A stretch of 64,000 bases of DNA from Patescibacteria group bacterium (lineage in GTDB: Bacteria > Patescibacteriota > Gracilibacteria > Peribacterales > Peribacteraceae): contig JALQTW010000001.1 in NCBI GenBank assembly GCA_023263945.1, forward strand, positions 117,741 to 181,740, written 5' to 3'. Within the stretch, counting starts at the first letter, position 1, and every line of letters begins with the position of its first letter. The notes below the pieces were generated by a model that had not been told where the DNA came from, searched no databases, and saw only the letters and a program-made list of their open reading frames with translations. Below, one piece after another: positions 2,388 through 63,101 of the stretch. Position numbers and translations under genes: made by a program.

Positions 2388-2498
2388 AAGGACCAATAAA
2401 AAAGAAGCCAAGAACCAAACAATACAAAAAAGAAAAATTCAAAATAAATTTTTTGTGTTTTCACTTACTTGGCTCTTGGTTCTTTTGTATTTTTTCTT

Positions 2499-3893
2499 TT
2501 AATCTGCCCCATCACCCTTCAGCACAACAAAAATCGTCCTCCACAGAATCCATACATCAAGAAGCAAGGACCATTCTTCAATATATTGAAGATCAAGGCG
2601 TACCTCGTCATCGAATTTTAAGTTCGATCGTCCTGAAATCTGTGCAAGTCCTGTCATTCCGGGTTTCACCGTGAAGACACGCCGTGCGTAATCGTTGTAA
2701 TTATCCACTTCATCGGGCAGATGTGGCCTGGGCCCAACAAGGGACATCTGCCCCAGGAGCACATTGAAGAGCTGCGGCAGTTCATCCAGCGTCCAATGCC
2801 GGAGAAAAGCACCGACCCCCGTCACACGCGGGTCATTCTTCATTTTGAAGAGAGGGCCATCGTTCCTGTGACTCAGTGTTACGAGTTTCTCTTTTCGCGC
2901 GTCGGCATCTTTCACCATTGTGCGGAACTTGATCATAGGAAACTTTGTCCGTGCAAATTGCCCGATACGTTTACTGAAATAGAGGATGGGCCATCCGCTT
3001 GTGAGAAGAACAAGCAAGCCAATGAGAAGGAGAAGAGGGCTCAAGAGGATGATAAACAGGATGCTCATGAGGACATCGAAAAGGCGCTTCCATACACGTC
3101 CCCAACCATCCAGTGGTGTTGGTTCAAATGTCAAAATAGGCATCACACCGAAACGTTCCACACTCAAGAGGTGAGGAACATCCACAAAAACGGGAGGCAG
3201 AAAAGAATAGTGAATGTGGTGACTCCGGCAGTACTCAATAAGGGAAAGTGTATCGTCATTCTTCGGATTTGCATCCGTATGCAGTACCACATCAATCGTT
3301 TTTCGTGATGCAATTTTTCGCATATCGGTGAGATCCATACAATGTCCGCTGTATCTGTATCTACGATCTAAAAGAAGCATCCGTTCAACCGAAGAGGGAA
3401 GTGCTGTGCGGCCGAAGGAACAGACGGTCCGTATTCCAATTCCCCGTTCCAAAAGCTCTCGTTGAATAACAAGCAGTAGCCCCCGAATAGACACAGAAAA
3501 CACGACAGAAAGAAATGTTGCCTGTAACAAAAGAATCCGAGAAAAGAAAAGCTGTTTTTGAACAAGGAAGTACCACGCGATGATGATGGCAAGCCACAGA
3601 CACGCAACAATGATGATCTTCTGTATTTCTTTCCAAAACCCCAACGTGAATTTGATGGCATACAATCGGATAATGGCACTCAGTGCGATGAAGAGCGCTA
3701 CGGAGGCAAGAGCGAAATCTTGTATATAAAGAGGAAAGGGCGGCAGGGTTGTTGGTGGCGTGAGGAGCTGTATCCATGGGAGTAAGTCGATATTCATCTC
3801 ACGGAGTCTGTACGCAACAATGAGCGCCAAAAAAACTGCTGCTGCATCCAGAGGGACTTTCAGGACCCCGAAGAGGACTTCGATGCGCTTCAT
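2499..3893 (-). CDS. polyprenyl-phosphate sugar phosphotransferase (bacterial sugar transferase, WbaP/EpsL-like)
   Basis: 464 aa with N-terminal TM helices. C-terminal block [20 protein letters not shown] ... KFRTM ... [38 protein letters not shown] is typical of the family. Confidence 0.8.
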
Positions 3894-3922
3894 GTCTTGA
3901 TAGTATCAAGAAGAGGGCATCT

Positions 3923-3951
3923 TTGTCTTGAAAAGACAAATACGGTATAAT
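3923..3951 (+). promoter_or_regulatory. candidate sigma70-type promoter of rnpB (TTGTCT-17-TATAAT)
   Basis: TTGTCT at 3923-3928, 17-nt spacer, TATAAT at 3946-3951, about 7 nt before the proposed RNA 5' end. Confidence 0.45.
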
Positions 3952-3957
3952 GATGAT

Positions 3958-4372
3958 CTGCTCTTTGGATGATCGCGCTACCTTTAAAAGGTAACGAGGA
4001 ACGTCCGGACACCGATGGAACGCCATATGGGTAACACCCATCCATGCACGCTGAATTCATAATCGTGCATGAGGACCAGTGCCACAGAGACGAACCCGTA
4101 CCGGAGCGCAAGCGACTGGTACTGGGTATGTGAAACGCCTCCGGCTTGAACGGAGGTCTGAGCATCATGTGGATCTTTGATCCGCCAACAATGTTCACGA
4201 CGGTAAACTCATGGTGGTGCAAGGAGGATTTGGGTAGAAGGAGAAAGCGAATGGTTCCGTTCGCCCTTCACCCCTCCGCTTGATCCGTCCAGTAATGGAT
4301 TGGACAGAGAGATGATCATCACCCCGCAAGGGGATACAGAATCCGGCGTACAGAAGGGCAGGATAAAGAGCA
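3958..4372 (+). ncRNA. rnpB: RNase P RNA, bacterial type A
   Basis: Conserved blocks are present: GAGGAACGTCCGGAC (P4 5' strand), GCCACAGAGACGAA, GGTAAACTC, ACAGAATCCGGCGTA (P4 3' strand). Terminal TGCTCTTT/AAAGAGCA pairing forms P1. All ORFs in 3799-4422 are short and mutually overlapping. End coordinates are accurate to about 10 nt. Confidence 0.85.
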
Positions 4373-4390
4373 TCGAAAGGTGCTTTTTTT
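4369..4390 (+). terminator. intrinsic terminator after rnpB
   Basis: AGCATC-GAAA-GGTGCT hairpin followed by a T7 run (4384-4390). Confidence 0.5.
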
Positions 4391-4400
4391 GAAACATCCA

Positions 4401-4472
4401 ATACAAAAGAGCCAAGAACCAAACTGGGTATATTCGATAACTAGTAAACTAATCAACCAATCAACCAAGAAC
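4401..4472. repeat. single-armed word array: ATACAAAAGAGCCAAGAACCAAAC (4401-4424) plus AACTAATCAACCAATCAACCAAGAAC (4447-4472)
   Basis: A 14-mer GCCAAGAACCAAAC also occurs at 2407-2420. A 19-mer AACTAATCAACCAATCAAC also occurs at 20684-20702. No complementary arm is nearby. Confidence 0.6.
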
Positions 4473-4535
4473 GATTCTTCTTGTATCCCTTCATCCCAAT
4501 GGTAGAGTATGTCCTAAGCTCCCCCTCGCCCCCCC

Positions 4536-5297
4536 ATGCCCCACGACGGTTTCGATATCCATCGTGTCCTCAACAAATATTCTCTTACCTTTATTTTGGT
4601 GGTGTTCTTCCTGGTGTCTGCATTGATGTTTGCGTATGCCATGAAGTTGCGTTCTATTTCTCACTCCATCAATTTTTCTGTTGCAGCACAGGCGGGGGAT
4701 CAACTTTTGAATCCCGCAGGACGTAATTTGCCTTCTCAGCACAAGCCACCCGTTCCAGGAGTAGGTCCTACGGAAGGGAATGCAAATGCTTCGCTGAAAA
4801 TCGTAGAATTTACAGATTACCAATGCACGCTCTGCGGACGGTACTTCACAGAGACGTATCAACAACTCAAGGAGAATTACATCGATACTGACAAACTTCG
4901 CTACGAAGTTCGCAACTTCCCGCTCACGAACATTCATCCGAATGCTATGGCCGCTGCAGAAGCTGCGGTGTGTGCTCGTAGACAGGGAAAATTCTGGGAT
5001 ATGCATGCAAAGTTATTCTCCAATCAGAGCAGATGGGGAGATCTTGCAGATCCACTCCCTTCCTTTAAAGACTATGCTACCCAAATTGGTCTGAATGCAG
5101 ATACGTTTGGTGATTGTCTTGATCAAAATCAGCCACAGAAAGAAATTGAGCAGGATATGGCAGATGCCGAGCGAGCAGGGATTGATGGCACGCCAAGCAT
5201 GTGGATCTTTGGCGCAAAAGACAGGGTTCAACAGGTGAATGGAACGTATCCCTACCGGTACTTTGTCCGTCAATTTGCTCGTCTTCTTCGACCATAA
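4536..5297 (+). CDS. membrane-anchored DsbA-family thiol:disulfide oxidoreductase
   Basis: 253 aa with an N-terminal TM helix (SLTFILVVFFLVSALMFAYA) and a thioredoxin-fold CxxC motif in FTDYQCTLCGRYF. Confidence 0.75.
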   Translation: MPHDGFDIHRVLNKYSLTFILVVFFLVSALMFAYAMKLRSISHSINFSVAAQAGDQLLNPAGRNLPSQHKPPVPGVGPTEGNANASLKIVEFTDYQCTLCGRYFTETYQQLKENYIDTDKLRYEVRNFPLTNIHPNAMAAAEAAVCARRQGKFWDMHAKLFSNQSRWGDLADPLPSFKDYATQIGLNADTFGDCLDQNQPQKEIEQDMADAERAGIDGTPSMWIFGAKDRVQQVNGTYPYRYFVRQFARLLRP

Positions 5298-5308
5298 CTT
5301 TCCTCTCT

Positions 5309-7450: not shown

Positions 7451-7990
7451 ATGCGCAAAGTGAAAGCACGATCTCACGCACGGGCACACGCAAAGGCACT
7501 TCCCTTCAAAACAATTGCGTATCCCGTCATCAGCATCGCGGTCATTGTGATTGTCGCCCTGGCATCTATGGTGCTGGCTCAAGAAGAACAGCCTCAGCAG
7601 GAAAGTGTGGATTCTATTGAGGCCTCTGGCACGGAACAAGTTGCGGTAACAGGAGCACTGGTGAGTGGAGATGTCCTGGGTGAGGACAACAGTGAAATTA
7701 TTCTGGCGTCAGACCCTGATGAAGGAATGACGTCTGTTGTGAGTGGAGATCTCACTGCGAACGATAACAATGAAGTCTCCGGTGACACGATTCACGTGAA
7801 AGGAAATGTTACTGCCAGCAATAACAGCCGTGTTCGTCTGACGGCATCGGTCGTGGATGGGAATGTGACCATTTTCGATGCCGCAGAGGTTTCTATCGAC
7901 TCTCAAACAGTCGTTCAGGGCGATATAGAAGGTGTCCTGCTTCGCAGCGAAGATGGATACAGTGTGTATGGAGCGTATCCAGCGGAGTAG
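7451..7990 (+). CDS. hypothetical membrane-anchored protein with short beta-helix-like repeats
   Basis: 179 aa with a basic N-terminus plus a TM helix (YPVISIAVIVIVALASMVLA), then repeated V.GD/V.GN segments. It starts 15 nt after the giant pilin-like gene. Confidence 0.45.
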   Translation: MRKVKARSHARAHAKALPFKTIAYPVISIAVIVIVALASMVLAQEEQPQQESVDSIEASGTEQVAVTGALVSGDVLGEDNSEIILASDPDEGMTSVVSGDLTANDNNEVSGDTIHVKGNVTASNNSRVRLTASVVDGNVTIFDAAEVSIDSQTVVQGDIEGVLLRSEDGYSVYGAYPAE

Positions 7991-10937: not shown

Positions 10938-11381
10938 TTAGCGCGTAACGGTGATGGACGCACTGTTCTCTGCACTTGGTGCAGCAACCGTAATGCGCGA
11001 CGTTGTCGCGTCCTTTACGATCGTGTAATCCGTGCTGTTTGCATCCGTGGAGGATGGGTCAGCAGGCATTGCCACAACGTACGAGCCTGTAAGCACATCG
11101 AGATCGATGAGGCTTGTACAGCTTGTTGCCGTTGTGCGGCAAATTTCCGTTGCCGTGGTCGTAATAGTACTTGGAATCTGACCGTTGTGGTCGATCGAGT
11201 ACTGGTACACGGCGTTCAGAATCGTGTTCACGTCTGAGCGGCGCTGTGCATTGCGGGCATCACCCAACTGCTTGGTCGGGTTGATAGCCACAATCACGAT
11301 TGCAGCCAAGATCGCGATGATTCCGATGACGAGGAGGAGTTCAATCAAGGTGAACCCTCCACGAGGAGAACGACGGATCAT
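10938..11381 (-). CDS. type IV pilin (candidate major pilin)
   Basis: An internal ATG at 11381 gives MIRRSPRGG|FTLIELLLVIGIIAILAAIVIVAINP, a canonical class III signal with Glu+5. It is the last gene of the pilus operon and has a strong terminator. Confidence 0.8.
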   Translation of the reverse strand: MIRRSPRGGFTLIELLLVIGIIAILAAIVIVAINPTKQLGDARNAQRRSDVNTILNAVYQYSIDHNGQIPSTITTTATEICRTTATSCTSLIDLDVLTGSYVVAMPADPSSTDANSTDYTIVKDATTSRITVAAPSAENSASITVTR

Positions 11382-11516
11382 AGAAAGGGGGGAGAAAATG
11401 AGAACACCATCAAGAAAATGATGGTACAACAGCGATTGTAGCAATTATTTGTTCAGTGTCCATAGGATTTTAAGAAAAGAACAAACAGAGGTTTTTCAGA
11501 TATTTGATTGCTTGAA

Positions 11517-11551
11517 AAAGAAGACAGAAGTCAGAAATCAGAAGACAGACG
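11517..11551. repeat. single-armed CAGAAG-word array upstream of the major pilin gene
   Basis: AAAGAAGACAGAAGTCAGAAATCAGAAGACAGACG. It shares the 13-mer CAGAAATCAGAAG with 51880-51892 (and its reverse complement at 51390-51402), and the 10-mer CAGAAGTCAG with 52728-52737. Confidence 0.6.
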
Positions 11552-16131: not shown

Positions 16132-17915
16132 GATGTATGAGACGTGGTGTCATCTTTTTTCGCTTCCATGGAAACAACTTCCGGAGGAGCCGCAATACGA
16201 AGAAGTTCTTCAATGGTTGTGAGTCCTGCTTTCACTTTTTCCAAGCCGTCTTCAAACAGATAGTGCATTCCTGCTCCACGTGCCTTGGACATAATTTCCG
16301 TAGACGAAGCACGTTTCACAATGAGATCTTCAATAGCAGGGGTTACTTCCAGAAGCTCATAAATACCAACACGACCGCGATACCCCGTATTTCCACACGA
16401 TGTACAACCCTTTCCGCGGTAGAGCACAATCGGTTCATTTGCAGGGAAGTATGACTCTGCGCCTACGAACAACTGACGCGCATCTGTTGGCTCCACGCTG
16501 TAACTGAAACGGCAGTGGGGACAAATGCGTCGTGCAAGACGCTGCGCCACAATCACCTCCAATGTGGATGCAAGCAAGAACGGCTCTACACCCATTTCGA
16601 TGAGGCGGGGGATGGCGGTTCCGGAATCATTCGCGTGGAGGGTTGAAAAGAGCAAGTGCCCTGTAAGCGCTGCGTTCACGGCAATAGATGCTGTTTCTGC
16701 GTCACGAATTTCACCCACCAGAATGATGTCCGGGTCCTGACGCACAAGAGCACGAAGACCTTTTGCGAAGGTGAGATCGGACGCTGCATTCACCTGAATG
16801 TGATTGATGCCGGGAATTTTGTATTCCACCGGATCTTCAATCGTCGAAATGTTCACATCCGGGCGGTTACGCATCTTGAGAAGTCCATAGAGCGTTGTGG
16901 ATTTACCTGCACCGGTTGGTCCGGTCGTGAGAATCATGCCGAACGGCTTGTGTGCCGCACGTTCCAGAATTTCACGGTAGGAATCCGAAAATCCAAGATC
17001 TGCAAGGGTGAGTGTTCGCACGTATTCGGAGAGCAAACGCATCACCACTTTTTCACCGTCCACAATCGGCACAATGGATACACGAACGTCCATGGTTCCG
17101 GCTTTGGAGTGATAGCGAATGGCACCGTCTTGTGCGGCGTAGTGTTCATCGATGCGCAGGTTCGCTTCAATCTTGATGCGGTTCACAATGCCTTCGTAGA
17201 ATTGTTTTGGGAGTCGTCCTGCTTCGTGCATCACACCGTCCACGCGGAAGCGAATCACCACATCTCCCTCTTGTGGTTCAAAGTGAATGTCCGATGCGCG
17301 GAGTGTCATGGCATCATCAAAAATTTCGTTGAGAATTTCCGGCGCAATTTTTGTCTGGCCTTCAATGAGCGATTGAAAGCGCGTTGAAAGAGGTTTTCGG
17401 TAGTACGAGAATCCTGCCTCAATGGAGTTCTTCGGCGCATATACGAGCTTAATAGTTCCCGAGAAAGGTTTTATATCCGCTTTTGGTTTACTGCCCCATA
17501 GACTCTTTCGCATCGACTTCTTTTCGCCAGCAGGTTCAATGAACTGTGGTTGTCCAATGTTCTGTTTCAACGTTTCTGTGAGTTCGGGAATGGTGGGATC
17601 CGACGTAGCAACCGTCACGGTTTCGTTTTCCCGCTTTACGGCAAGAACCGAGAGAGAACGAGCACACTCTTCCGGAAGAAGTTCGGCAACATCTGGAGTA
17701 GGAGGATGTGCGGGAATATCGTAGAACGGAAGTTTGTAATGTTCAGCCAAAGCATTTTCCAAAAGCTCACGGGTAAGAAGTCCCTGTTCAAACAGGACCA
17801 TCTTCAGATCAATCTTTCGCTCTGCTGCTTCTGCAAGAACTTTCTGCAATTCCTCTGGTGCAAGGTAGTTCTGCTCTAGCAGGATTGCGCCCAATTGTTC
17901 GTTTGTGAGTTGCAT
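16128..17915 (-). CDS. pilB: type IV pilus assembly ATPase (GspE/PilB family)
   Basis: 595 aa with an N-terminal T2SSE_N-like domain, Walker A GPTGAGKST, Asp/His boxes, and the tetracysteine motif CPHC...CTSC. Confidence 0.9.
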   Translation of the reverse strand: MQLTNEQLGAILLEQNYLAPEELQKVLAEAAERKIDLKMVLFEQGLLTRELLENALAEHYKLPFYDIPAHPPTPDVAELLPEECARSLSVLAVKRENETVTVATSDPTIPELTETLKQNIGQPQFIEPAGEKKSMRKSLWGSKPKADIKPFSGTIKLVYAPKNSIEAGFSYYRKPLSTRFQSLIEGQTKIAPEILNEIFDDAMTLRASDIHFEPQEGDVVIRFRVDGVMHEAGRLPKQFYEGIVNRIKIEANLRIDEHYAAQDGAIRYHSKAGTMDVRVSIVPIVDGEKVVMRLLSEYVRTLTLADLGFSDSYREILERAAHKPFGMILTTGPTGAGKSTTLYGLLKMRNRPDVNISTIEDPVEYKIPGINHIQVNAASDLTFAKGLRALVRQDPDIILVGEIRDAETASIAVNAALTGHLLFSTLHANDSGTAIPRLIEMGVEPFLLASTLEVIVAQRLARRICPHCRFSYSVEPTDARQLFVGAESYFPANEPIVLYRGKGCTSCGNTGYRGRVGIYELLEVTPAIEDLIVKRASSTEIMSKARGAGMHYLFEDGLEKVKAGLTTIEELLRIAAPPEVVSMEAKKDDTTSHTS

Positions 17916-19959: not shown

Positions 19960-20026
19960 AGTTCTTGGTTTTTAGTTCTTGGTTATTGGTCTTTCTCCAA
20001 TAACTAATAACCAACAACTAATAACT
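19960..20026. repeat. quasi-palindrome between the convergent genes purH and recR
   Basis: Left arm AGTTCTTGGTTTTTAGTTCTTGGTTATTGG (19960-19989). Right arm CCAATAACTAATAACCAACAACTAATAACT (19997-20026). About 24 of 30 positions pair. It contains the 17-mer AACTAATAACCAACAAC, also found at 27639-27655. Confidence 0.7.
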
Positions 20027-20623
20027 TTATAGTTTTCTCCTCCCTGCAATCGCTTCACGGAGCGTTACCTGATCCGCAAATTCAATATCTGCACCCATGG
20101 GAAGACCATGAGCAAGACGGCTAATGGTCGGAACTTTTGATGATAATTCTTGCCGGATGAATGCTGCGGTTGCTTCACCTTCGGTATCAGGATTTGTCGC
20201 GATGATGAGTTCATTGATCGATCCATCCTTACAACGATCAATCAGTTCTTTCATCTTGAGTTGCTCTGGACCCATCCCGTCGAGTGGAGAGAGGACACCA
20301 TGAAGTACGTGATACAAACCTCGATACTTCGTTTTCTCGAACGCCACGACATCGAGTGGACTCTCAACGACCAGAATCATCGACCGGTCACGCGAAGAAT
20401 CCTGACAAATGGGACACAACTCTTCGCTACTTACCATCTGACACGATGCACAGTAATGGATTTCTTTTTTCAGGTTTTGAAGCGCTTCCCCAAGCCGCTC
20501 CGGTGATGCTTTACTAGACCTCAAAAGGTGAAATGTAAGGCGTTCTGCGGACTTTGGGCCAATGCCGGGAAGCTTTTGAAGTTCCTCGATGGTGCGCTGG
20601 ATTTGGGGAGGGAGGAGGGGCAT
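20027..20623 (-). CDS. recR: recombination protein RecR
   Basis: 198 aa with an HhH N-terminus (LQKLPGIGPKSAERL), zinc finger C..C...C..C, and a Toprim domain. Confidence 0.9.
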   Translation of the reverse strand: MPLLPPQIQRTIEELQKLPGIGPKSAERLTFHLLRSSKASPERLGEALQNLKKEIHYCASCQMVSSEELCPICQDSSRDRSMILVVESPLDVVAFEKTKYRGLYHVLHGVLSPLDGMGPEQLKMKELIDRCKDGSINELIIATNPDTEGEATAAFIRQELSSKVPTISRLAHGLPMGADIEFADQVTLREAIAGRRKL

Positions 20624-20626
20624 AAA

Positions 20627-20703
20627 AAGTTGATTGGTTGACTGGTTGATTAGGAGACAAGCAAGTAAACCAGTAAACCAGGCAACTAATCAACCAATCA
20701 ACT
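20627..20703. repeat. quasi-palindrome between recR and smpB
   Basis: AAGTTGATTGGTTGACTGGTTGATTAG ... CTAATCAACCAATCAACTT. The arms can pair in two registers. It shares a 19-mer with 4447-4465. Confidence 0.7.
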
Positions 20704-21143
20704 TAAGAATCCTCACCACGTCTTACTCTTCTTTCCACTTCTCGATCTCGTATTCTCTGCCTCTTATCTAACTTCTTTCTTCCTCGTCCAATACCAAGGA
20801 ACAATTTAATAAATCGTCCTGCGCGTACTTCTAAGGGAATAATCGTCATTCCCTTTTCCTGTTCGATAGCTGTAAGCCGCGCCAGCTCCGATTTTTTGAT
20901 GAGCAATTCGCGATCTTGTTTTTCATCGTACTCGCCACTCACCGTCGCAAAGCGATAGGGTGCGATAGATGCATTCTTGAGCACGGGCGTGCCACCTCGA
21001 AAGGACACGTACGATCCGCTTAAATGAATGTGCCCCGCACGGCACGACTTCACCTCCTGACCACTCAGGACAATGCCGGCTTCAAGAGTATCTATTATCT
21101 CAAAGTCGAACCGAGCCTTTTTGTTCTGTGCGACAACTTTCAT
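20703..21143 (-). CDS. smpB: SsrA-binding protein SmpB
   Basis: 146 aa. KKARFDFEIIDTLEAGIVLSGQEVKS ... basic C-terminal tail. Confidence 0.9.
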   Translation of the reverse strand: MKVVAQNKKARFDFEIIDTLEAGIVLSGQEVKSCRAGHIHLSGSYVSFRGGTPVLKNASIAPYRFATVSGEYDEKQDRELLIKKSELARLTAIEQEKGMTIIPLEVRAGRFIKLFLGIGRGRKKLDKRQRIRDREVERRVRRGEDS

Positions 21144-25448: not shown

Positions 25449-25481
25449 GTTTATTCATTTACTGGTTTATTCGTTTATTTG
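25449..25481. repeat. single-armed word array GTTTATTCATTTACTGGTTTATTCGTTTATTTG
   Basis: Stuttered TTTATTC/TTTACT words in the divergent spacer. Confidence 0.4.
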
Positions 25482-27557: not shown

Positions 27558-27596
27558 ACAAGGGAATGCTCGGCAAATGAAAAGGAGTGATGAAAA

Positions 27597-27662
27597 GTTA
27601 TTAGTTTTTAGTTATTGGTTCTTAGAAAAGAAACCAAAAACTAATAACCAACAACCAAAAAA
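27597..27662. repeat. quasi-palindrome between the convergent genes rnj and pyrC
   Basis: GTTATTAGTTTTTAGTTATTGGTTCTTAG ... CCAAAAACTAATAACCAACAACCAAAAAA. GTTATTAGTTTTT (27597-27609) pairs perfectly with AAAAACTAATAAC (27636-27648). Confidence 0.7.
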
Positions 27663-28942: not shown

Positions 28943-29041
28943 AGATATAAGATATAAGACTTAAGACGTAAGTTGAAAGCTAGAAAATAGAAGGGACACG
29001 TTTTTGGTTTCTTAAGTCTTTTATCTTCTGTCTTAGATCTT
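28943..29041. repeat. quasi-palindrome inside the pyrB-pyrC intercistronic spacer
   Basis: AGATATAAGATATAAGACTTAAGACGTAAG ... CTTAAGTCTTTTATCTTCTGTCTTAGATCTT. The core AAGACTTAAG (28956-28965) pairs perfectly with CTTAAGTCTT (29011-29020). Confidence 0.65.
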
Positions 29042-31774: not shown

Positions 31775-33242
<1,468 letters not shown>

Positions 33243-45844: not shown

Positions 45845-45850
45845 CTAGAA

Positions 45851-45903
45851 GCTAGTTGCTAGCAGCTAGAGAGGTTTATCGTAAAAAGAAACTAGCGACT
45901 AGC
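45851..45903. repeat. CTAG-word hairpin between the convergent S41 protease gene and ndk
   Basis: GCTAGTTGCTAGC (45851-45863) pairs at 11/13 positions with ACTAGCGACTAGC (45891-45903). Flanking GCTAGAAGCTAG / CCTCTAGTAAC words extend it. Confidence 0.6.
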
Positions 45904-45920
45904 CTCTAGTAACTACTTTC

Positions 45921-46340: not shown

Positions 46341-46371
46341 AGAGTGCGAGGATGGTAGCGGAAAGAATATT

Positions 46372-46433
46372 AGAATAATAGAGTAATAGAATAATAGGAA
46401 TCACGACCTAGTACTCTAGTATTCTATTATTCT
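46372..46433. repeat. 26-bp imperfect hairpin between the M16 peptidase gene and ndk
   Basis: AGAATAATAGAGTAATAGAATAATAG (46372-46397) pairs with CTAGTACTCTAGTATTCTATTATTCT (46408-46433) at 22/26 positions, with a 10-nt loop. Confidence 0.7.
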
Positions 46434-46454
46434 CCACTTTTTACTTTCTATGCC

Positions 46455-47722: not shown

Positions 47723-47751
47723 AGTCTAAGGCGGAACATGCCAAATACCAA
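47723..47751 (-). promoter_or_regulatory. candidate leaderless promoter (TTGGTA-17-TAGACT-8 nt-ATG)
   Basis: Read on the minus strand: -35 at 47746-47751 (inside the CCAAATACCAAA word), -10 at 47723-47728, ATG at 47714. Confidence 0.45.
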
Positions 47752-47773
47752 ATTCTAAATTCCAAACGGGAGG

Positions 47774-47823
47774 TAGCGGCAGCTCCGGAGCTGCCGCTAG
47801 CAGCGAGCCATGGCTCGCTGCTA
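47774..47823. repeat. two abutting perfect 26-nt palindromes
   Basis: TAGCGGCAGCTCCGGAGCTGCCGCTA (47774-47799) and TAGCAGCGAGCCATGGCTCGCTGCTA (47798-47823). They share the central TA, and each is its own reverse complement. Confidence 0.9.
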
Positions 47824-47869: not shown

Positions 47870-48013
47870 ATGTTAGGAAAGACACGTTGGCGTCGGCGTC
47901 TCCGCAGGCACGGATTCCTTGCTCGGAGCAAAAGTAAAACAGGTCGCAAAGTCCTGAAACGTCGTCGTGCACAGGGGAGGAAAAGAATCGCGGTGCAGAA
48001 GAAATTGAAATAG
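47870..48013 (+). CDS. rpmH: 50S ribosomal protein L34
   Basis: The internal ATG at 47870 gives MLGKTRWRRRLRRHGFLARSKSKTGRKVLKRRRAQGRKRIAV... Confidence 0.85.
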   Translation: MLGKTRWRRRLRRHGFLARSKSKTGRKVLKRRRAQGRKRIAVQKKLK

Positions 48014-48080
48014 CCACGAGCTGTGAGCTTTGAGACACGAGCTACGAGTTTTTCTCGTATCTCGAAACTCGTGCCTCAAG
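48014..48080. repeat. CACGAG/CTCGTG-word quasi-palindrome and terminator after rpmH
   Basis: The centre is GCTACGAG-TTTTT-CTCGTATC (48041-48061). The outer words CACGAG (48015, 48036) pair with CTCGTG (48068-48073). Confidence 0.6.
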
Positions 48081-48096
48081 GGTGTATCCTCATTCC

Positions 48097-51294: not shown

Positions 51295-51340
51295 GAGGGT
51301 AGGGTAGCGGGAGGAGGCAATGGAGGGTAGAGGGATCTCT

Positions 51341-51417
51341 GAAGAAGGCAGAAGACAGAAGGCAGAAATTAGATAACTTAAAACTCTGCCTTCTGATTTC
51401 TGGTTTCTGACTTCTTT
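51341..51417. repeat. CAGAAG-word hairpin between the lipoprotein gene and pheT
   Basis: GAAGAAGGCAGAAGACAGAAGGCAGAAAT ... CTGCCTTCTGATTTCTGGTTTCTGACTTCTTT. CAGAAGGCAG (51356-51365) pairs perfectly with CTGCCTTCTG (51386-51395). Confidence 0.7.
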
Positions 51418-51870: not shown

Positions 51871-51899
51871 AAAAGAAGACAGAAATCAGAAGGCAGAAG
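51871..51899. repeat. CAGAAG-word arm upstream of the lipoprotein gene
   Basis: AAAAGAAGACAGAAATCAGAAGGCAGAAG. The 17-mer at 51880-51896 is the exact reverse complement of 51386-51402. Confidence 0.8.
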
Positions 51900-52155: not shown

Positions 52156-52443
52156 ATGTCTGACTTATTGGAATTACGCATAACGGCTTTGGAGCAAGAG
52201 ATGAAGGCTGTTCGCGATCGAAACGAGCGTGTTGAATTAGATAAGACATGGGAAACAAGCTGGATCCGAATGATCGTCATTACCATTCTTACCTACGTTT
52301 TTGCCTCCACTTTCTTATACCTCATTGAAGTTCCTCATTATTTTTTGAGCAGTATCGTTCCGGCGTTCGGATTTATTCTCTCCGTACAATCGATCCCCAT
52401 GATAAAAAAATGGTGGATATCTAAAAGATCTAACAACCAATAA
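52156..52443 (+). CDS. hypothetical small membrane protein (coiled-coil N-terminus, 2 TM helices)
   Basis: 95 aa. A TTGACA-17-AGTATA promoter-like site lies at 52098-52126. Confidence 0.5.
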   Translation: MSDLLELRITALEQEMKAVRDRNERVELDKTWETSWIRMIVITILTYVFASTFLYLIEVPHYFLSSIVPAFGFILSVQSIPMIKKWWISKRSNNQ

Positions 52444-52458
52444 CTAACAACTAAAAAC

Positions 52459-52668
52459 TTACACCGGCTTTCCCTCACTCATCCTCTTTGCCAATGTCCT
52501 CAAGTACGCTGTCGAAACCTTCATTGTTTTGTACGTTCCTGTTTGAGGGTCAAATACGCGCTTCTTCTGAATATTTGCACGGAAGACACGGCGTGTTGCG
52601 CGCAGCGAGTGGCTGCGGCGGTTTCCGCTGGAGTTTCCTTTGCCGGTCTTTTCACAACGATGAGCCAT
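52459..52668 (-). CDS. rpmB: 50S ribosomal protein L28
   Basis: 69 aa. MAHRCEKTGKGNSSGNRRSHSLRATRRVFRANIQKKR. Confidence 0.85.
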   Translation of the reverse strand: MAHRCEKTGKGNSSGNRRSHSLRATRRVFRANIQKKRVFDPQTGTYKTMKVSTAYLRTLAKRMSEGKPV

Positions 52669-52715: not shown

Positions 52716-52785
52716 CAGAGAAGAAATCAGAAGTCAGTAGGCAGAAGGCAGCAAGAAAACTGTCTTCTGACTTCTGCATTCTTTC
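52716..52785. repeat. CAGAAG-word hairpin in the divergent rpmB / M50 protease spacer
   Basis: CAGAAGTCAG (52728-52737) pairs perfectly with CTGACTTCTG (52767-52776). The inner pair GAAGGCAG / CTGTCTTC matches at 7/8. Confidence 0.7.
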
Positions 52786-52818
52786 CCATTCTCGCGTATA
52801 CTACAACTCTCTCATTCT

Positions 52819-54061: not shown

Positions 54062-54346
54062 ATGCTTTCTGAATTCATCTCCATTACAAACCTCCAACGG
54101 CATCTGAAAAAAGTTTTTTATTCCAACAAACCTATCCATCTTGTCTTGAGCAATAATGAAGTGAGCGGCATTGTGTTTTCCAAAGAGGCCGCGGAAAAAC
54201 TCTTGGAATCTGGCGCACTGGATCAACTACGCGAAGAATTATGGGAACTGGACGATAAGGAGACGAGAGATCTTGTAATCCGCAGCAGAAAAGGAAAAAC
54301 GAAATCTGTTCCATTTCGTGATTTTGCGAAGGAATATGGCATATAA
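54062..54346 (+). CDS. type II antitoxin (Phd/YefM-like)
   Basis: 94 aa, immediately upstream of and overlapping the RelE-like gene by 11 nt. N-terminus: ISITNLQRHLKKVFYSNKPIHLVLSNNEVSGIVFS. Confidence 0.6.
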   Translation: MLSEFISITNLQRHLKKVFYSNKPIHLVLSNNEVSGIVFSKEAAEKLLESGALDQLREELWELDDKETRDLVIRSRKGKTKSVPFRDFAKEYGI

Positions 54347-54605
54347 TATTCTCATTGAAGATATCCGCGTATGGAAGAAAGATTGTGCTTCTATTCCACG
54401 CGATCGGCTGCAGCTCGTTGTTCGAAAAATCTACGCTTTAGAGAAAGATCCGTGGGCTAACAATGTTCAGGTAAAACAATTGAAGGAATATGGCATTGCA
54501 GATTTCCGTTTGCGTGTTGGTGACTATCGCGTGCTATTCAATAAAGATGAGGATACAAAAACAATCCAGCTTTTACGGCTGCTACATCGGTCGAAGTTAT
54601 ATTGA
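54336..54605 (+). CDS. type II toxin, RelE/ParE family
   Basis: ATG at 54336. 89 aa: MAYNILIEDIRVWKKD ... DFRLRVGDYRVLFNKDEDTKTIQLLRLLHRSKLY. Confidence 0.7.
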   Translation: MAYNILIEDIRVWKKDCASIPRDRLQLVVRKIYALEKDPWANNVQVKQLKEYGIADFRLRVGDYRVLFNKDEDTKTIQLLRLLHRSKLY

Positions 54606-54714: not shown

Positions 54715-54752
54715 CGAGTCTACAAGCTATACGCTACAGGCTACAAGCTATG
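54715..54752. repeat. single-armed word array TCTACAAGCTATACGCTACAGGCTACAAGCTATGAC
   Basis: CTACAAGCTAT is repeated, with a CTACAGG variant. It lies between tRNA-Thr and the sufU stop. Confidence 0.45.
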
Positions 54753-55371: not shown

Positions 55372-56613
55372 TTATGCAGATCTTGCAGCAGAATGAGAGC
55401 CATCAAGTTGATGAATACTCTCCTCAAACAATTTCGCAAACTGATCCAATTCCTCAGCAGAATTATACACACCCACAGACAACCGAGACGACGCTAGAAC
55501 CCCCAGACGCTTGTGCAGCGGTTGCGTGCAGTGATGTCCCGCCCGAAGCATCACTCCTTCCTGACTTAGGAGTTGTGTCAGATCATGTGGGTGAATGCCA
55601 TCGAGCGTAAAGCTGATACAGCTGACTTTTTGAAAGGGATTGAGAGCACCGAGGATTGTGACAGGTTTCACGGTAGCACGTTGCAGGATATCGAGGATGT
55701 GAGTCAGGAGTGATTGTTCATGTTTTTGAATTTCATCGAATCCGATTTGTTCGATCCATTCCATCGCCGTACGCAATCCCACTGCTTCGGCAATGGCAGG
55801 AGTTCCTGCTTCAAATTTTCGTGGAAGTTCCGCTGTCGTAAAGTGATTGGTTGTTACTTCTCCAATCATGTCGCCACCACCTAAGAAAGGAGGCATTTTT
55901 TCGAGAAGATTTTCTTTTCCGTATAACACTCCAATTCCTGTAGGGCCATACATTTTATGACTGGAGAAAGCCAAGAAATCACAGTCAAGCTTTTGTACAT
56001 CCATGCGTTCATGTAGAGCCATCTGTGCAGCGTCAATCATGATCACAGCACCTTTTGTATGTGCGAGTTCGATCATCGTTTCGATGGGTGATCGAATGCC
56101 AAGAACGTTGCTTACAGCAGATACACTCACGAGTTTTACAGGATGATCGGCAAGAATTTTTTTGTATTGATCGAGATCGATCATTCCATCGTTGTTGATA
56201 TCAACCCACTCAATTCTTACACCAAGTTCATCTTTCAGCTGCAACCATGGAACAATGTTGGAGTGATGCTCCAGAATCGTCAGAACAATGACATCATCTT
56301 TTTTCAGGATCGATCGTCCATATGTTTTTGCAACAAGGTTGATGCTCTCGGTCGTATTCCTTGTGAAAATAACTTCATGAGATTTTTGTGCGTTGATGAA
56401 TTTCTGCACGACCTTCCGCGCATCGTCATATGCAAGAGTCGCGGCCTCTGCCAGTTTGTGCACGCCTCGATTAATATTTGCATTCGATGTTTTGTAAAAC
56501 TGGTCCATTGCATCCAGTACAACCTGTGGTTTCTGTGTGGTTGCGGCGTTATCCAGATAGATAAGATTAGGTTGAAGTAACGGAAACTGCCTACGAATGG
56601 AGTTAATATCCAT
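55372..56613 (-). CDS. sufS: cysteine desulfurase, SufS type (class V aminotransferase)
   Basis: The internal ATG at 56613 gives MDINSIRRQFPLL...IYLDNAATTQKP. Motifs: SSHKMYGPTGIGVLYG (PLP Lys) and RAGHHCTQP (catalytic Cys). Confidence 0.9.
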   Translation of the reverse strand: MDINSIRRQFPLLQPNLIYLDNAATTQKPQVVLDAMDQFYKTSNANINRGVHKLAEAATLAYDDARKVVQKFINAQKSHEVIFTRNTTESINLVAKTYGRSILKKDDVIVLTILEHHSNIVPWLQLKDELGVRIEWVDINNDGMIDLDQYKKILADHPVKLVSVSAVSNVLGIRSPIETMIELAHTKGAVIMIDAAQMALHERMDVQKLDCDFLAFSSHKMYGPTGIGVLYGKENLLEKMPPFLGGGDMIGEVTTNHFTTAELPRKFEAGTPAIAEAVGLRTAMEWIEQIGFDEIQKHEQSLLTHILDILQRATVKPVTILGALNPFQKVSCISFTLDGIHPHDLTQLLSQEGVMLRAGHHCTQPLHKRLGVLASSRLSVGVYNSAEELDQFAKLFEESIHQLDGSHSAARSA

Positions 56614-56622
56614 TGAGAGGAG

Positions 56623-56650
56623 ATTATAAATGCCAAAGGCCAAATACCAA
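56623..56650 (-). promoter_or_regulatory. candidate leaderless promoter of sufS (TTGGTA-16-TATAAT-9 nt-ATG)
   Basis: Read on the minus strand: -35 at 56645-56650 (inside the CCAAATACCAAA word), -10 at 56623-56628, ATG at 56613. Confidence 0.5.
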
Positions 56651-56734
56651 ATGTCAAACAATAGGAAACAAATGACAATTTGCTCTTAATCTTTAAGTGT
56701 TGTTTGGCCCTTGTCCTTTGGCATTTGGCATTTT
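56628..56734. repeat. quasi-palindrome filling the divergent spacer between sufS and the GT-C membrane protein gene
   Basis: AAATGCCAAAGGCCAAATACCAAATGTCAAACAA (56628-56661) and TGTTTGGCCCTTGTCCTTTGGCATTTGGCATTTT (56701-56734) pair at about 24/33 positions. The 14-mer GCCAAATACCAAAT also occurs at 47740-47753. Confidence 0.7.
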
Positions 56735-56757
56735 CATCCTGTATCCTCAGGACCTCT

Positions 56758-60621: not shown

Positions 60622-60679
60622 GAATTGAGAATTTAGAATTGAGAATAAAAAGGATATCTCAATTCTGTATTCTCAATTC
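60622..60679. repeat. 22-bp GAATTGAGAAT-word hairpin
   Basis: GAATTGAGAATTTAGAATTGAG (60622-60643) pairs with CTCAATTCTGTATTCTCAATTC (60658-60679) at 20/22 positions. Confidence 0.75.
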
Positions 60680-60738
60680 ACAATTCTTCCTTTCGCCGGT
60701 CTTTTCTGAGGCTCGTGGACCCGCTACGATACATCTTC

Positions 60739-61887
60739 ATGGACCACCTCACAAAAACTGCTTCCAGAGCTCTTGCTACGGGTAAGAAGATTCTTCTTGT
60801 AAGCCCGTACTGGCTGGAAGATCACCGCTGGATGATCAGCTCTGTGAAATTAAGCGAACTTTGGCAGAGAATGGGGTATTCGGTGACGGTAGTGTGTATG
60901 GGATCGAAAAATCATAGTGAGATGATGTCTGAAACGCTCACAGTGCATTATCGAAAAGATTTCTTTTTTCCAGATCCCTTGAATTACGGCATCGCATTCG
61001 GATTTTCTAAGTATGTAGAGAAAGTCGCACGAGAACTGCAGCCCGATCATGTGATCATCAACAAGGTCTTGTTTTGGTCTTCGCTCGCCATCTTCAGATT
61101 AAAGAAGATGGGTTATTCTGTGTTGCTCGTCACAGATGCACTTGTCGGCATCACGTGGAAACCACGTCATTGGTATTCGAAAGTTATCATGTCTCTTGGT
61201 GCATGGACAGTGGGGAAGAGGGTTCTCCGCGCAGCGTCCCGCATCGTCTTTTTTCATCCTCAGCCATTGGATGTTTTACAGAAGCTGATGATCGATCAGA
61301 AAAGTATTGTCATTCCTACAGGTATCGATCCATCCCTGTTTTCGACGGGTGATCGATCATCGATTCTTCGTATCACGTATGTCGGTCGTCTGGAATCTGT
61401 AAAAGGAGTGGATGATTTTTTGGCAGCAGCGAAGAATGTGAAGGAGAAACATCCCGAAATTGTCATCCAGGTGGTCGGTTGGTACAAAGATCGCCACGAT
61501 CTTGTAGAGAAATATCAATCTCTTGTGACGTTTACGGGTCTTTCGCGAGATATTCCTACGGTCCTCCGTGATACCGATATTTTTGTTCTCCCAAGTTACT
61601 CAGAAGGTCTCAGTAATGCGCTGATGGAAGCCATGGCGAGCAATTGTGCGTGCATAGCAACAGAAGTAGGAGGGAATACGTTTTTGATTGAAAACAATGT
61701 TTCAGGACTTCTCTTCAAGCCGGGGGATAGAACGACATTACAAAGTCATCTCGAAACATTGATCAATGACGTATCACTTCGTACAACACTCGGTGCCGCT
61801 GCGAGGACACGTATTGAAACAATTTTTTCATGGGAGCATGTCATGAAACACTACGCACAGATGTTCGAAACAATGAAGAGAGAATGA
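60739..61887 (+). CDS. GT4-family (group 1) glycosyltransferase
   Basis: ATG at 60739. C-terminal block: VGRLESVKGVDDF ... FVLPSYSEGLSNALMEAMASNCACIATEVGGN. Confidence 0.8.
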   Translation: MDHLTKTASRALATGKKILLVSPYWLEDHRWMISSVKLSELWQRMGYSVTVVCMGSKNHSEMMSETLTVHYRKDFFFPDPLNYGIAFGFSKYVEKVARELQPDHVIINKVLFWSSLAIFRLKKMGYSVLLVTDALVGITWKPRHWYSKVIMSLGAWTVGKRVLRAASRIVFFHPQPLDVLQKLMIDQKSIVIPTGIDPSLFSTGDRSSILRITYVGRLESVKGVDDFLAAAKNVKEKHPEIVIQVVGWYKDRHDLVEKYQSLVTFTGLSRDIPTVLRDTDIFVLPSYSEGLSNALMEAMASNCACIATEVGGNTFLIENNVSGLLFKPGDRTTLQSHLETLINDVSLRTTLGAAARTRIETIFSWEHVMKHYAQMFETMKRE

Positions 61888-61960
61888 TGAGAAATTTTTG
61901 ATCATCTTTTTCAATTCGATCAATCCATCATTTGTTGCTTCCGATGTATACTTTCTCTCC

Positions 61961-63025
61961 ATGAAGCAGAAGATTGTCATCGTTTCCGCGTTTTTGCGTC
62001 CTATGCGCAGCGGTGCCGAAGCAATGGTGGAAGAAGTATCGGTTCGTTTGCGTGATCGGTACGATATTGTCATTGTCACAGCGCGTATGAAGAGGAAACT
62101 TCCCAAGGAAGATCTTCTTGAAGGGACCGTTCGTGTTCGACGAATTGGCCTTGGATTTTCCTTTGATAAATGGCTCTTTCCCTTCCTTGCATTTTTCGCT
62201 GTACGAAGGGAAAAACCTGCTATTGTTCATGCCGTTCTGGAGTCCTTTGCGGGGTTCTCACTGGTCTTCCTGAAGCTCTTCTATCGCTCGCCAAAACGTC
62301 TGCTCACATTGCAAAGCACGAACACCACATTATTGTTACGGGCCATCCACCGGGCAGCAAATGCTATTACCGGTATCAGCTCGGTTCTTCTCCTTCGTGC
62401 ACGAAAATTTGGACGAGATGACGTGATCTACATTCCAAATGGGATCGATCTCCCCGCCATTGAAGAATCTCTCACCAAATTTCAGCGTATTCATGGTCGT
62501 ATTCTCTTTGTCGGTCGCTTGGAGCACGTGAAAGGAGTAGATGTTCTTCTCACAGCGTTTGCGGAATTAACAGATTCAGACCTCTCACTGACTATTGTCG
62601 GAGATGGAAGTGAACGGGAGAAGCTGGAGCAACTCGCGCAGGAACTCCGCATTGCAGATCGTGTGATGTTCCTTGGAAAACTGTTGCCTCTCAAAGTGTA
62701 TGACCAATACGCAAGCGCAGAACTCTTCATCGGCCTCTCCCGCAGTGAGGCGCTTGGAAACGTGTTTTTAGAGGCTCAGGCAGCCGGTTGCGCTGTGATT
62801 GCATCAAACGTGGGAGGTATTCCGGAAATTGTGAAAGATCAGGTCACGGGCATCCTCGTTCCACCGGATGATCCAGATAAAGCCGCCCAGGCAATCCATC
62901 AGCTTCTCATGAATATTTCGCTTCGTACGTCGCTTATTACAGAAGCACGTGAGCATGTGAAAAAATTTGATTGGGATTTGATCGCAGAGAGGTATGCGAA
63001 AGTGTATGAAGGGCTTATAGGATGA
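61961..63025 (+). CDS. GT4-family (group 1) glycosyltransferase
   Basis: ATG at 61961. VGRLEHVKGVDVL ... SEALGNVFLEAQAAGCAVIASNVGGIPEIV. Confidence 0.8.
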   Translation: MKQKIVIVSAFLRPMRSGAEAMVEEVSVRLRDRYDIVIVTARMKRKLPKEDLLEGTVRVRRIGLGFSFDKWLFPFLAFFAVRREKPAIVHAVLESFAGFSLVFLKLFYRSPKRLLTLQSTNTTLLLRAIHRAANAITGISSVLLLRARKFGRDDVIYIPNGIDLPAIEESLTKFQRIHGRILFVGRLEHVKGVDVLLTAFAELTDSDLSLTIVGDGSEREKLEQLAQELRIADRVMFLGKLLPLKVYDQYASAELFIGLSRSEALGNVFLEAQAAGCAVIASNVGGIPEIVKDQVTGILVPPDDPDKAAQAIHQLLMNISLRTSLITEAREHVKKFDWDLIAERYAKVYEGLIG

Positions 63026-63026
63026 G

Positions 63027-63093
63027 AGTTATTGGTTCTTAGTTTTTGGTTGTTGGTTCGTCAACTAATAACTAAGAACTAAAAACCAAAAAC
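63027..63093. repeat. 31-bp quasi-palindrome and terminator between the convergent GT4 and gmk-fusion genes
   Basis: The AGTTATTGGTTCTTAGTTTTTGGTTGTTGGTT arm, a CGTC loop, then AACTAATAACTAAGAACTAAAAACCAAAAAC (63063-63093). 25 Watson-Crick pairs, 3 G.U pairs and 3 mismatches, followed by TTTTTT on the plus strand. Confidence 0.75.
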
Positions 63094-63101
63094 TTTTTTA
63101 T

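Follow-up and report, generated by a model that had tools for sequence, protein, structure and literature searches.

Heptanucleotide repeat hairpins between the genes of a Peribacteraceae genome: likely products of slippage and possible signals at transcript ends

Background

What are the stuttering, partly palindromic sequences that lie between the genes of a Peribacteraceae chromosome, how do they arise and what, if anything, do they do? The question is raised by a stretch of 64,000 nucleotides from an uncultured Patescibacteria group bacterium of the groundwater type, class Peribacteria (Gracilibacteria; Peribacterales; Peribacteraceae in GTDB), positions 117,741 to 181,740 of contig JALQTW010000001.1 in GenBank assembly GCA_023263945.1. 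We call this whole stretch the window and count positions from its first nucleotide. A preliminary description, made from the letters of the sequence, had listed 22 intergenic stretches composed of slightly varied short words, and we return to its claims where our results bear on them. The explanation that we favour, and to which we give a probability of roughly 45%, is that these are slippage-driven hairpins of heptamer repeats, similar to the STRR repeats of filamentous cyanobacteria, most of which would serve as factor-independent signals at transcript ends; the functional half of this proposal is read from sequence comparison.

Results

Seven-nucleotide units confined to non-coding DNA

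All 22 stretches contain stuttering words as claimed. Tandem Repeats Finder resolves these words as degenerate tandem repeats, mostly of period 7 and in a few cases of period 8, and the degeneracy is strong, two or three positions of a unit being variable. The non-coding set that we used consists of 40 spacers (3,855 bp) from a curated gene map, and non-coding DNA makes up 6.9% of the window. The curated map adds rpmH (47870-48013, + strand) and rpmB (52668-52459, - strand) and moves the starts of five genes: that of a 980-amino-acid (aa) protein to 56758, sufS to 56613, vanW to 42696, ftsX to 39811 and an M16 peptidase gene to 47714. Over the 40 spacers, self-identity at a lag of 7 is 0.376, compared with 0.269 in dinucleotide shuffles (z 15.7); at lags of 14 and 21 it is 0.347 (z 9.9) and 0.316 (z 6.4), with shuffles at about 0.268. 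The coding DNA of the window displays only the period of 3. In control loci from other phyla hairpins are present and the lag-7 signal is absent. Of the 23 period-7 arrays, 21 fall within the non-coding 6.9% of the window (p about 1e-22).

A manual census covered the 31 spacers of at least 60 bp. Seventeen hold a full inverted pair of arrays, five a one-armed array and nine neither, which makes the earlier statement that nearly every spacer above 60 bp is a quasi-palindrome too strong. Even so, arrays of the heptamer type fill about 70% of the longer spacers. The window has 23 array loci in 64 kb, and the inverted pair is the commonest arrangement (17/23). Reverse-complement words do follow the direct ones in these 17 pairs, as had been described; four other listed stretches (11517-11551, 25449-25481, 51871-51899 and 54715-54752) are one-armed. 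The stretch 47738-47823 does contain a heptamer array, but this too is one-armed and is followed by two unrelated, perfect, GC-rich palindromes. Some of the array-free spacers carry ordinary terminators with a GC-rich hairpin and a T run, at about 4370-4392 (after the RNase P RNA gene) and after gene 10938-11444; sigma-70-like promoters are present in others, such as TTGTCT-17-TATAAT upstream of the RNase P RNA gene.

Several other identities were considered and set aside. The arrays have no regular spacers and are not CRISPRs; the elements match none of the covariance models of Rfam 15, and riboswitch and small-RNA readings were ruled out. We also dropped the idea of a barrier in which a heptamer containing a stop codon would hit all three frames within three repeats, because two of the word families described below (B and C) lack stop triplets on either strand.

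Long hairpins with more than one register

Each of the 22 listed loci was folded and compared with 200 dinucleotide shuffles on both strands. At 19 of them z is below -2 on at least one strand, the mean being -3.4 on either strand, and the folding potential suspected from the letters is borne out. For the full pairs, the minimum-energy fold is a single long, AU-rich hairpin of 20-44 pairs, best paired beside the loop and decaying outward, with a mismatch about once per unit. When one arm is slid by 7 nt, nearly as many Watson-Crick pairs form as in the best register, while other shifts give a paired fraction of about 0.3. At locus 19957 the figures are 24/33 pairs in the best register and 23/33 after the slide; at locus 56622 they are 35/58 and 30/55. 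The preliminary description had noticed complementary words in permuted order (A B ... rcA rcB) and considered either several pairing registers or a pseudoknot-like fold. It was right about the registers. The permuted order is a by-product of repeated words, which allow several registers, and the pseudoknot is not needed: the minimum-energy folds are plain long hairpins. RNAalifold predicted no pairs in a MAFFT alignment of the family B elements of the window and of its closest relative, in which the repeated words fell out of register.

Hairpins lie mostly behind stop codons

A junction table compiled by hand has 30 junctions with a gene 3' end (8 convergent and 22 tandem) and 13 divergent ones. 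Convergent, tandem and divergent junctions are all occupied, as had been stated, although unequally. The 30 junctions with a 3' end comprise 15 with a full hairpin, 4 with a one-armed array and 11 with neither; for the 13 divergent junctions the numbers are 2, 2 and 9. Full hairpins are thus found at 15/30 of the former against 2/13 of the latter (Fisher p = 0.045). For 15 of the 17 full hairpins, all 15 at 3'-end junctions, the distance between a stop codon and the beginning of the stem is 0-31 nt. On the strand of the upstream gene, the hairpins at 39628 (T7), 63026 (T6), 20629 (T5), 42758 and 27596 (both T4) are followed by T runs. It is this combination of 3'-end bias, closeness to stop codons and T runs after several elements that makes us favour a role at transcript ends. 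Many elements are also A-rich on the 5' side and T-rich on the 3' side, so that the transcripts of both strands would end U-rich, as in bidirectional terminators.

The annotation table of the complete genome of Candidatus Peribacter riflensis, a relative of the window genome, lists NusA, NusG, RNase III and RNase J, and rho (K03628) is not among its listed entries. On this annotation the lineage appears to lack Rho. Our promoter and terminator scan models only short GC-rich stems and is uninformative for the heptamer hairpins; it did detect terminators of the canonical type.

Words shared between loci

Ten pairs of spacers have a 14-mer in common where 0.05 would be expected, and six pairs have a 16-mer in common where 0.01 would be expected; the longest shared word is 22 nt. 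From shared k-mers we grouped the elements into five word families, four of heptamers and one of 8-mers, with further words in use at other loci. Identified by start positions, these are family A (2388, 4401, 39628), family A2 (19957, 27597, 28943, 63027), family B (11517, 51341, 51871, 52716), family C (42758, 47738, 56628) and the 8-mer family D (4447, 20627, 25449). The copies of family A have inverted termini in common (roughly ATACAAAAGARCC), and their loops are unrelated. Some unit words recur between genomes at non-orthologous loci (CAGAAGG, GTTATTG, AAACCAA, GAATTGA). Such exact unit matches number 8, of which about 4 are independent, against 1.05 in composition-preserving shuffles.

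Copying between loci is real. It follows from the shared k-mers and from a concerted change of words in the closest relative, and the earlier suggestion that shared exact words point to copying holds.

Relatives and strains

Relatives were obtained by protein searches and by looking up contigs that encode exactly the same protein. Searching with PheT returned hundreds of sequences from Peribacteraceae and Peregrinibacteria at about 50-57% identity; a metagenome scan with the same protein gave only distant homologues (about 30% identity), with close relatives missing. Within the species-representative collection the nearest genome, here called L011, is an uncultured 'Candidatus Peribacteria' metagenome-assembled genome whose PheT is 70% identical. 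Four further syntenic loci, L022 to L025, come from Peribacteraceae or Peregrinibacteria with a GC content of 50-60% and a PheT identity of about 50-54%. All five have intergenic arrays of period 7, 8 or 9, some as inverted pairs and some one-armed, and the arrays often keep their junctions while their words have changed. It is largely shown that heptamer hairpins are a trait of the Peribacteraceae lineage.

At both the pheT/141-aa and the rpmB/M50 junction, the window has CAGAAnn with nnTTCTG and L011 has CGAAAnn with nnnTTCG, in both arms at both loci, and the two L011 hairpins have CGAAATCCGAAAATTTCG in common. The shift from CAGAA/TTCTG to CGAA/TTCG is a concerted change, and complementarity is kept through it. 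The orthologue of the array at the rpmB stop is built from GTTATTG in L011 and from CTAACAA/CTAAAAA in the window. At the M16/ndk junction the window and L022 both have 8-mer hairpins of related words (AGTATTCT in L022). The sufS/980-aa spacer measures 144 bp in the window, where the element takes up 117 bp, and 47 bp in L011, whose array at this place is another, one-armed one (ATCTTnn); in L022 the spacer contains a GC-rich hairpin. The GAATTGA word of the window element 60622-60679 is also present in L025.

L025, a Peregrinibacteria contig, adds two observations. At its rpsR/yebC junction (2953-3379), inverted arrays GAGCTTT/GAGCGAT ... AAAGCTC/ATCGCTC flank a 122-aa gene for a 23S_rRNA_IVP protein (PF05635, E 8e-37; the protein also matches bAvd-like). 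The window has a plain hairpin at that junction (34488-34561), and the L025 word GAGCTnT is that of another window element, 48014-48083. Elsewhere in L025, which has 60% GC, there are inverted arrays at 7743-7832, 16402-16443 and 20532-20760 with units of 9 nt (CAAAGGACC, CCGAAGAAT) and of 6 nt (CCCCCT ... GAGGGG, about 180 nt apart); the phylum as a whole thus does not hold to units of 7 nt.

Ten metagenome contigs, found in ENA, Logan and JGI assemblies, encode a protein identical to the NDK of the window, and over as much as 11.5 kb they match the window DNA at 98.6-100% identity. Since the elements are identical in these independent assemblies, they are not assembly artefacts. Strains at about 99% identity differ at two elements. 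In strain contig L007 exactly one heptamer (GAGCTGT) is deleted from element 48014-48083, and in the same strains the array 47738-47767 has different words that read as a perfect 14-nt tandem duplicate (GCCAAGTTCCAAAT/C). Both differences fit slipped-strand mispairing or conversion in unit steps. An origin by slippage in units of about 7 nt, together with copying between arms and loci, is in our view reasonably well supported.

A test for purifying selection, in which four hairpins (320 bp) had no substitutions against a rough synonymous divergence (dS) of 0.036, was rejected as evidence because strain differences are concentrated in recombination tracts and because more than 3 kb of identical sequence surrounds two of the elements. 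Against strain contigs L002 and L005, tracts of about 5% divergence adjoin kilobases of identity. Two tract boundaries, noted at 39723-39834 and 42842-42936, fall within about 100 bp of the hairpins 39628-39723 and 42758-42842; with n=2 this could be chance or reflect gene boundaries.

The elements along the window

Pairs of z values in this section are those of the two strands, + before -, from 200 dinucleotide shuffles each. Family A is represented by a full hairpin of CCAAGAA/CCAAACA at the convergent junction 2388-2498 (z -3.5, -3.9), which shares a 22-mer with 39620-39780 and a 15-mer with 4367-4490. The partner in the 22-mer is the full hairpin 39628-39723, which stands after the stop of a TPR gene and is followed by T7. 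A mosaic hairpin, 4401-4486, joins family A on its left to family D 8-mers (AACCAATC) on its right; it lies behind both the stop of gene 4491-5006 (-) and the canonical terminator that ends the RNase P RNA gene, and its z of -3.0 is found on the - strand only. Three of the four family A2 hairpins, all full, are convergent: 19967-20026 between purH and recR (GTTCTTG/GTTATTG; 24 pairs; z -6.3, -5.2), 27596-27656 between the RNase J and amidohydrolase genes (z -4.2, -7.3) and 63026-63095 between a glycosyltransferase gene and gmk (z -9.5, -4.7), with T6 on the + strand. The fourth, at the tandem junction 28943-29033, uses AGATATA/AGACTTA and belongs to A2 by shared k-mers (z -2.3, -3.1).

Family B has full hairpins at 51343-51408 between the 141-aa gene and pheT (CAGAAGG/CAGAAAT; z -4.4, -4.0) and at 52718-52787 between the divergent rpmB and M50 peptidase genes (z -3.5, -3.1). 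Its one-armed arrays are 11517-11551 at a tandem junction (CAGAAnn, period 7, 4.4 copies), which forms no hairpin (z 0.1, 1.2), and 51871-51899 between tRNA-Ser and the 141-aa gene, which has an 18-mer in common with 51295-51416. In family C, the full hairpin 42758-42842 (CCAAAGT/CCAAATA; z -3.4, -5.0) directly follows the stop of an RNase H gene, and 56622-56738, with 41-44 pairs (z -4.4, -3.8), fills the divergent spacer between sufS and the 980-aa gene; a one-armed array of GCCAAAT/ACCAAAT lies at 47738-47767 between the divergent M16 and rpmH genes. Beside the large family C hairpin, a TATAAT box (56611-56627, -) stands 8 nt upstream of the sufS ATG, and because it is so close the sufS mRNA may be leaderless. 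The 8-mers of family D form a full hairpin at 20629-20702 (GTTGATTG; z -5.7, -6.7) between smpB and recR, after which the - strand reads TTTTT and then the recR ATG, and a one-armed array without a hairpin at the divergent junction 25449-25481 (GTTTATTC).

The remaining elements use words of their own. Full hairpins are found at 34488-34561 between the tandem genes rpsR (S18) and yebC (GTTACAC/GGTAGCA; z -4.0, -4.2), at 45845-45909 between the convergent S41 peptidase gene and ndk (CTAGAAG/CTAGTTG; z -2.2, -2.9), at 46362-46435 between the M16 peptidase gene and ndk (8-mers, AGAATAAT; z -4.6, -4.9), at 48014-48083 directly after the rpmH stop (GAGCTGT/GAGCTTT; z -2.5, -5.7) and at 60622-60679 directly after the stop of a DUF2304 gene (GAATTGA/GAATTTA; z -6.7, -5.5). 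One-armed arrays lie at 52430-52463 after the rpmB stop (CTAACAA/CTAAAAA) and at 54715-54752 between the nifU stop and tRNA-Thr (CTACAAG/CTATACG), the latter forming no hairpin.

Neighbouring genes and other features

The window is a housekeeping stretch of the chromosome, with pheT, ndk, sufS/nifU, recR, smpB, purH and genes for RNase J, a class A penicillin-binding protein and glycosyltransferases. One 16S rRNA, RNase P RNA and three tRNAs are the only RNA genes that reach the Rfam 15 gathering score. The 16S rRNA gene (31775-33242, -) stands alone; the window, which extends for about 31 kb on either side of it, has no 23S or 5S rRNA gene, and the rRNA genes are therefore unlinked.

Between a gene for an unknown 118-aa protein and tRNA-Thr there is a small two-gene module (54062-54605, +). 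Its second open reading frame (ORF), 54318-54605, matches the ParE toxin (PF05016, E 3e-5), and the ORF directly before it, 54062-54346, has no Pfam match and might encode an antitoxin. Another ORF without a Pfam match, 52156-52443 (+, 95 aa), lies between tRNA-Ser and rpmB. As only about 85 bp separate the rpmB stop from tRNA-Ser in L011, this ORF is either an insertion in the lineage or no gene.

The spacer between the M16 peptidase gene and rpmH also holds the two adjacent 26-bp palindromes (47776-47823), TAGCGGCAGCTCCGGAGCTGCCGCTA and TAGCAGCGAGCCATGGCTCGCTGCTA. Both are perfect, GC-rich and not built from heptamers; they are invariant among strains and kept in L011 (13478-13527; PheT 70% identical). 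They could be an operator or another kind of DNA site. The rpmH gene often adjoins the replication origin.

Discussion

How the hairpins might arise and act

The scheme that we favour can be outlined. As is largely shown, degenerate arrays of 7-nt, sometimes 8-nt, units grow, shrink and become homogenised by slipped-strand mispairing, with copying or conversion between arms and between loci adding to slippage. Where an array is followed by its own reverse complement, either strand can fold into a long AU-rich hairpin. Such inverted pairs would mostly mark factor-independent transcript ends, as terminators, as hairpins that protect the 3' end, or as both, and often in both directions. One-armed arrays and the hairpins at divergent junctions would come from the same stock of repeats, which promoter and leader regions either tolerate or have put to new use.

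A number of observations weigh against this scheme. At the divergent sufS/980-aa junction the hairpin 56622-56738 fills the spacer, with the sufS ATG only 8 nt away on one side and that of the 980-aa gene 19 nt away on the other, and a second full hairpin (52718-52787) also lies at a divergent junction, upstream of a TTGAC box before rpmB; box and upstream hairpin are both kept in L011, L022 and L023. The preliminary description was correct that a simple terminator role does not explain all elements. Some hairpins stop 5 nt before the next start codon (recR; gene 27666-28937), where a complete stop of transcription would shut off the gene that follows. A U-tract is not consistently present, the stems differ from canonical terminators in being long, AU-rich and mismatched, and canonical terminators coexist with them in the same window. 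Nor is there a strand signature of action as RNA: on the sense strand, G.U and A.C mismatches number 29 and 26, and of 9 tandem junctions only 5 have the more stable fold on the sense strand. The inference that Rho is missing rests on the entries listed in the annotation table of a relative, not on the window genome.

Several other explanations can be suggested. The simplest is that the hairpins do nothing in particular, slippage in steps of about 7 nt and intrastrand template switching that perfects quasi-palindromes having filled unconstrained AT-rich spacers, with the 3'-end bias marking only where spare DNA is tolerated. A unit-length deletion and a perfect 14-nt duplicate between strains are what such a process would leave, as are stems most perfect near the loop, a wobble count without strand bias, arrays at every type of junction including one-armed forms, and units of 6-9 nt in GC-rich relatives. 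An excess of heptamer simple sequence repeats in bacteria has been ascribed to polymerase slippage (PMC4692102, citing Mrazek 2007). A compact genome would be expected to purge useless DNA, however (1.25 Mb in Ca. P. riflensis, PMC4736985), and the arrays occupy much of the spacer DNA, are still found at the same junctions in relatives with 50-70% PheT identity and, as inverted pairs, are much the commonest beside stop codons. We regard a pure by-product as unlikely. Improbable, in our opinion, is a primary role in RNA processing, stability or translation, the duplexes being substrates of, or barriers to, RNase III or RNase J that yield stable units, or tuning start codons where no Shine-Dalgarno sequence is evident. 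Stems of 20-44 pairs are long enough for RNase III, an enzyme that the Ca. P. riflensis table lists, and the window has a gene for RNase J. Within apparent operons, some hairpins precede a start codon by 5-21 nt. Intervening sequences of rRNA are excised by RNase III, and the L025 gene for a 23S_rRNA_IVP protein between heptamer arms has their layout. In Beggiatoaceae, TAACTGA repeats just upstream of starts have been proposed as sites for a translational regulator (PMC4679880). Yet G.U pairs show no strand asymmetry, and the words vary too much between loci for one sequence-specific RNA-binding protein. The start codons of pheT, ndk and recR have no evident Shine-Dalgarno sequence.

The elements could also be selfish palindromes, akin to REP/REPIN, MITE or SDR elements and spread by a transposase encoded elsewhere. 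The 14-22-mers common to distinct loci, the inverted termini around unrelated loops in family A, the mosaic of two families in spacer 4367-4490, the 117-bp sufS/980-aa element facing a 47-bp spacer with a different one-armed array in L011, and the recurrence of words at non-orthologous loci all point that way. Against it, there is no single consensus, five word families and further words occurring within 64 kb; no target-site duplication and no clean empty site were seen, the short L011 spacer being occupied by its own array; a Pfam scan found no transposase among the ORFs of the window; and the listed Ca. P. riflensis entries contain no RAYT (K07491), IS200 or reverse transcriptase, only three weak 'transposase' entries. 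The clustering at 51.3-52.8 kb also fits conversion or slippage better than transposition, and we hold mobility to be rather improbable. Very doubtful, finally, is an action of the arrays as DNA, with TTGnnnn words offering -35 boxes in several registers or binding a nucleoid or insulator protein. Many words of the GT-rich strand do contain TTG (TTGGTTC, TTGACTG, TTGGTAT, TTGACAT); the TATAAT box before sufS has a TTGGTA 16 nt upstream, inside a hairpin arm; one-armed arrays occur in divergent promoter regions of the window and of L023-L025; and the vocabulary of words is partly common across genomes. But family B (CAGAAnn) and the elements at 45845 (CTAGnnG) and 48014 (GAGCTnT) have neither TTG nor another common motif, a spacing of 7 bp does not match the helical repeat of DNA, most elements are at 3' ends, some of them at convergent junctions, where a promoter would be out of place, and promoter-like sites are not in excess (18 against 22 expected, 1-20 kb).

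A bolder version of the transcript-end proposal can be imagined, and we consider it decidedly unlikely. Peribacteria, and perhaps Peregrinibacteria more widely, might possess a dedicated punctuation of multi-register heptamer hairpins for transcript ends, processing sites and some promoters, upheld by active copying or conversion that keeps a cross-genome vocabulary of words. The suggestion draws on the lack of an annotated Rho and on the frequent lack of an evident Shine-Dalgarno sequence. Four-helix-bundle proteins of the 23S_rRNA_IVP/Avd-like type, one of which is encoded inside the L025 hairpin, might be a partner.

Why the elements matter

Heptamer repeats of Xanthomonas and Beggiatoaceae have been known since 2015, and the function of the whole class has never been established. 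A lineage of the candidate phyla radiation (CPR) with genomes of about 1.2 Mb, conserved positions, a concerted change of both arms and unit-length differences between strains is a compact system in which to ask whether such repeats are slippage debris, selfish DNA or transcript-end signals. The only complete annotated genome of the lineage has no Rho among its listed entries. If the punctuation idea were true, it would be an independent parallel to cyanobacterial STRR repeats and would give a long-unexplained class of repeats a testable function. There are practical sides too. Terminator predictors tuned to GC-rich stems and U-tracts will miss heptamer hairpins; ORF callers extend starts into them, as seen with vanW, yebC and the genes for the M16 peptidase and the 980-aa protein; and assembly or read mapping may be interrupted there.

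Comparison with known repeat systems

Hairpin-forming heptamer repeats are known elsewhere, in cyanobacteria and Xanthomonas, and their occurrence in Peribacteria appears to be newly seen. The paper on complete Peribacteria genomes does not mention intergenic repeats, palindromes or hairpins, and full-text searches of the literature found no description for Peribacteria or other CPR bacteria. The preliminary description recognised no described class and took REP/BIME elements as the nearest concept; on both points we differ. Among described classes, the STRR heptanucleotide repeats of filamentous cyanobacteria come nearest, followed by the GGGAATC arrays of Xanthomonas and, third, by the TAACTGA repeats.

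REP and BIME elements are short intergenic imperfect palindromes, sometimes mosaic, that occur most often at 3' ends and convergent junctions and are able to affect the ends of transcripts. In contrast to these, and to REPINs as another REP-type comparison (PMC3116915), the window elements have no genome-wide consensus palindrome, and their arms are tandem repeats. No RAYT is found among the ORFs of the window by Pfam, and neither K07491 nor IS200 among the listed Ca. P. riflensis entries. As for MITEs, family A has inverted termini, no target-site duplication was seen, and the sufS/980-aa spacer of L011 is not an empty site. The resemblance to intrinsic terminators lies in the position of the hairpins close behind stops and in the explicit T runs after several; yet a T4-T7 run on the sense strand is found in only about five elements, and canonical terminators have 5-14 GC-rich pairs and a U-tract of 7-9 nt where the window stems have 20-44 AU-rich pairs with periodic mismatches.

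TAACTGA repeats are abundant between genes in marine Beggiatoaceae, some cyanobacteria and Bacteroidetes, often beside starts without a canonical ribosome-binding site, and the word is common to these distant lineages (PMC4679880). They consist of a single word and are nearly always direct (one inverted in 170), whereas the window has many words and mostly inverted pairs. In Xanthomonas, 70-75 cases per genome consist of two convergent GGGAATC arrays with stem-loop potential, mostly between co-directional or convergent genes and rarely between divergent ones, and their position is kept between species while length and sequence vary (PMC4692102). The window arrays are likewise intergenic heptamers in inverted pairs, scarce at divergent junctions and kept in position. 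They differ in that one G-rich, G-quadruplex-capable word dominates in Xanthomonas (Nostoc has comparable GGGGAYT repeats), while the window words are AT-rich, diverse and without G-tracts. The classical Xanthomonas and Beggiatoaceae words form no tandems in the window, where TAACTGA is not repeated.

Tandem heptanucleotide repeats of cyanobacteria have been known since 1990, and very small dispersed repeats are reportedly embedded in such arrays (Elhai et al. 2008). Cyanobacteria are not known to possess Rho. The STRR words CCCCAGT, TTGGTCA and CAACAGT (STRR1-3) have no tandem copy in the window. The window elements also differ from STRR repeats in their host, which belongs to another phylum (CPR/Peregrinibacteria) and has a genome of about 1 Mb, and in their strong degeneracy, the coexistence of many word families and the prevalence of inverted pairs (17/23). 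STRR repeats are tandem 7-bp units found between genes at many loci, often capable of forming hairpins, for which roles in transcript stability, translational coupling or termination have been proposed (PMC2670836). The elements of the window resemble them in having units of 7 nt, in lying between genes, in being dispersed (23 loci in 64 kb) and in forming hairpins with a nearby inverse array.

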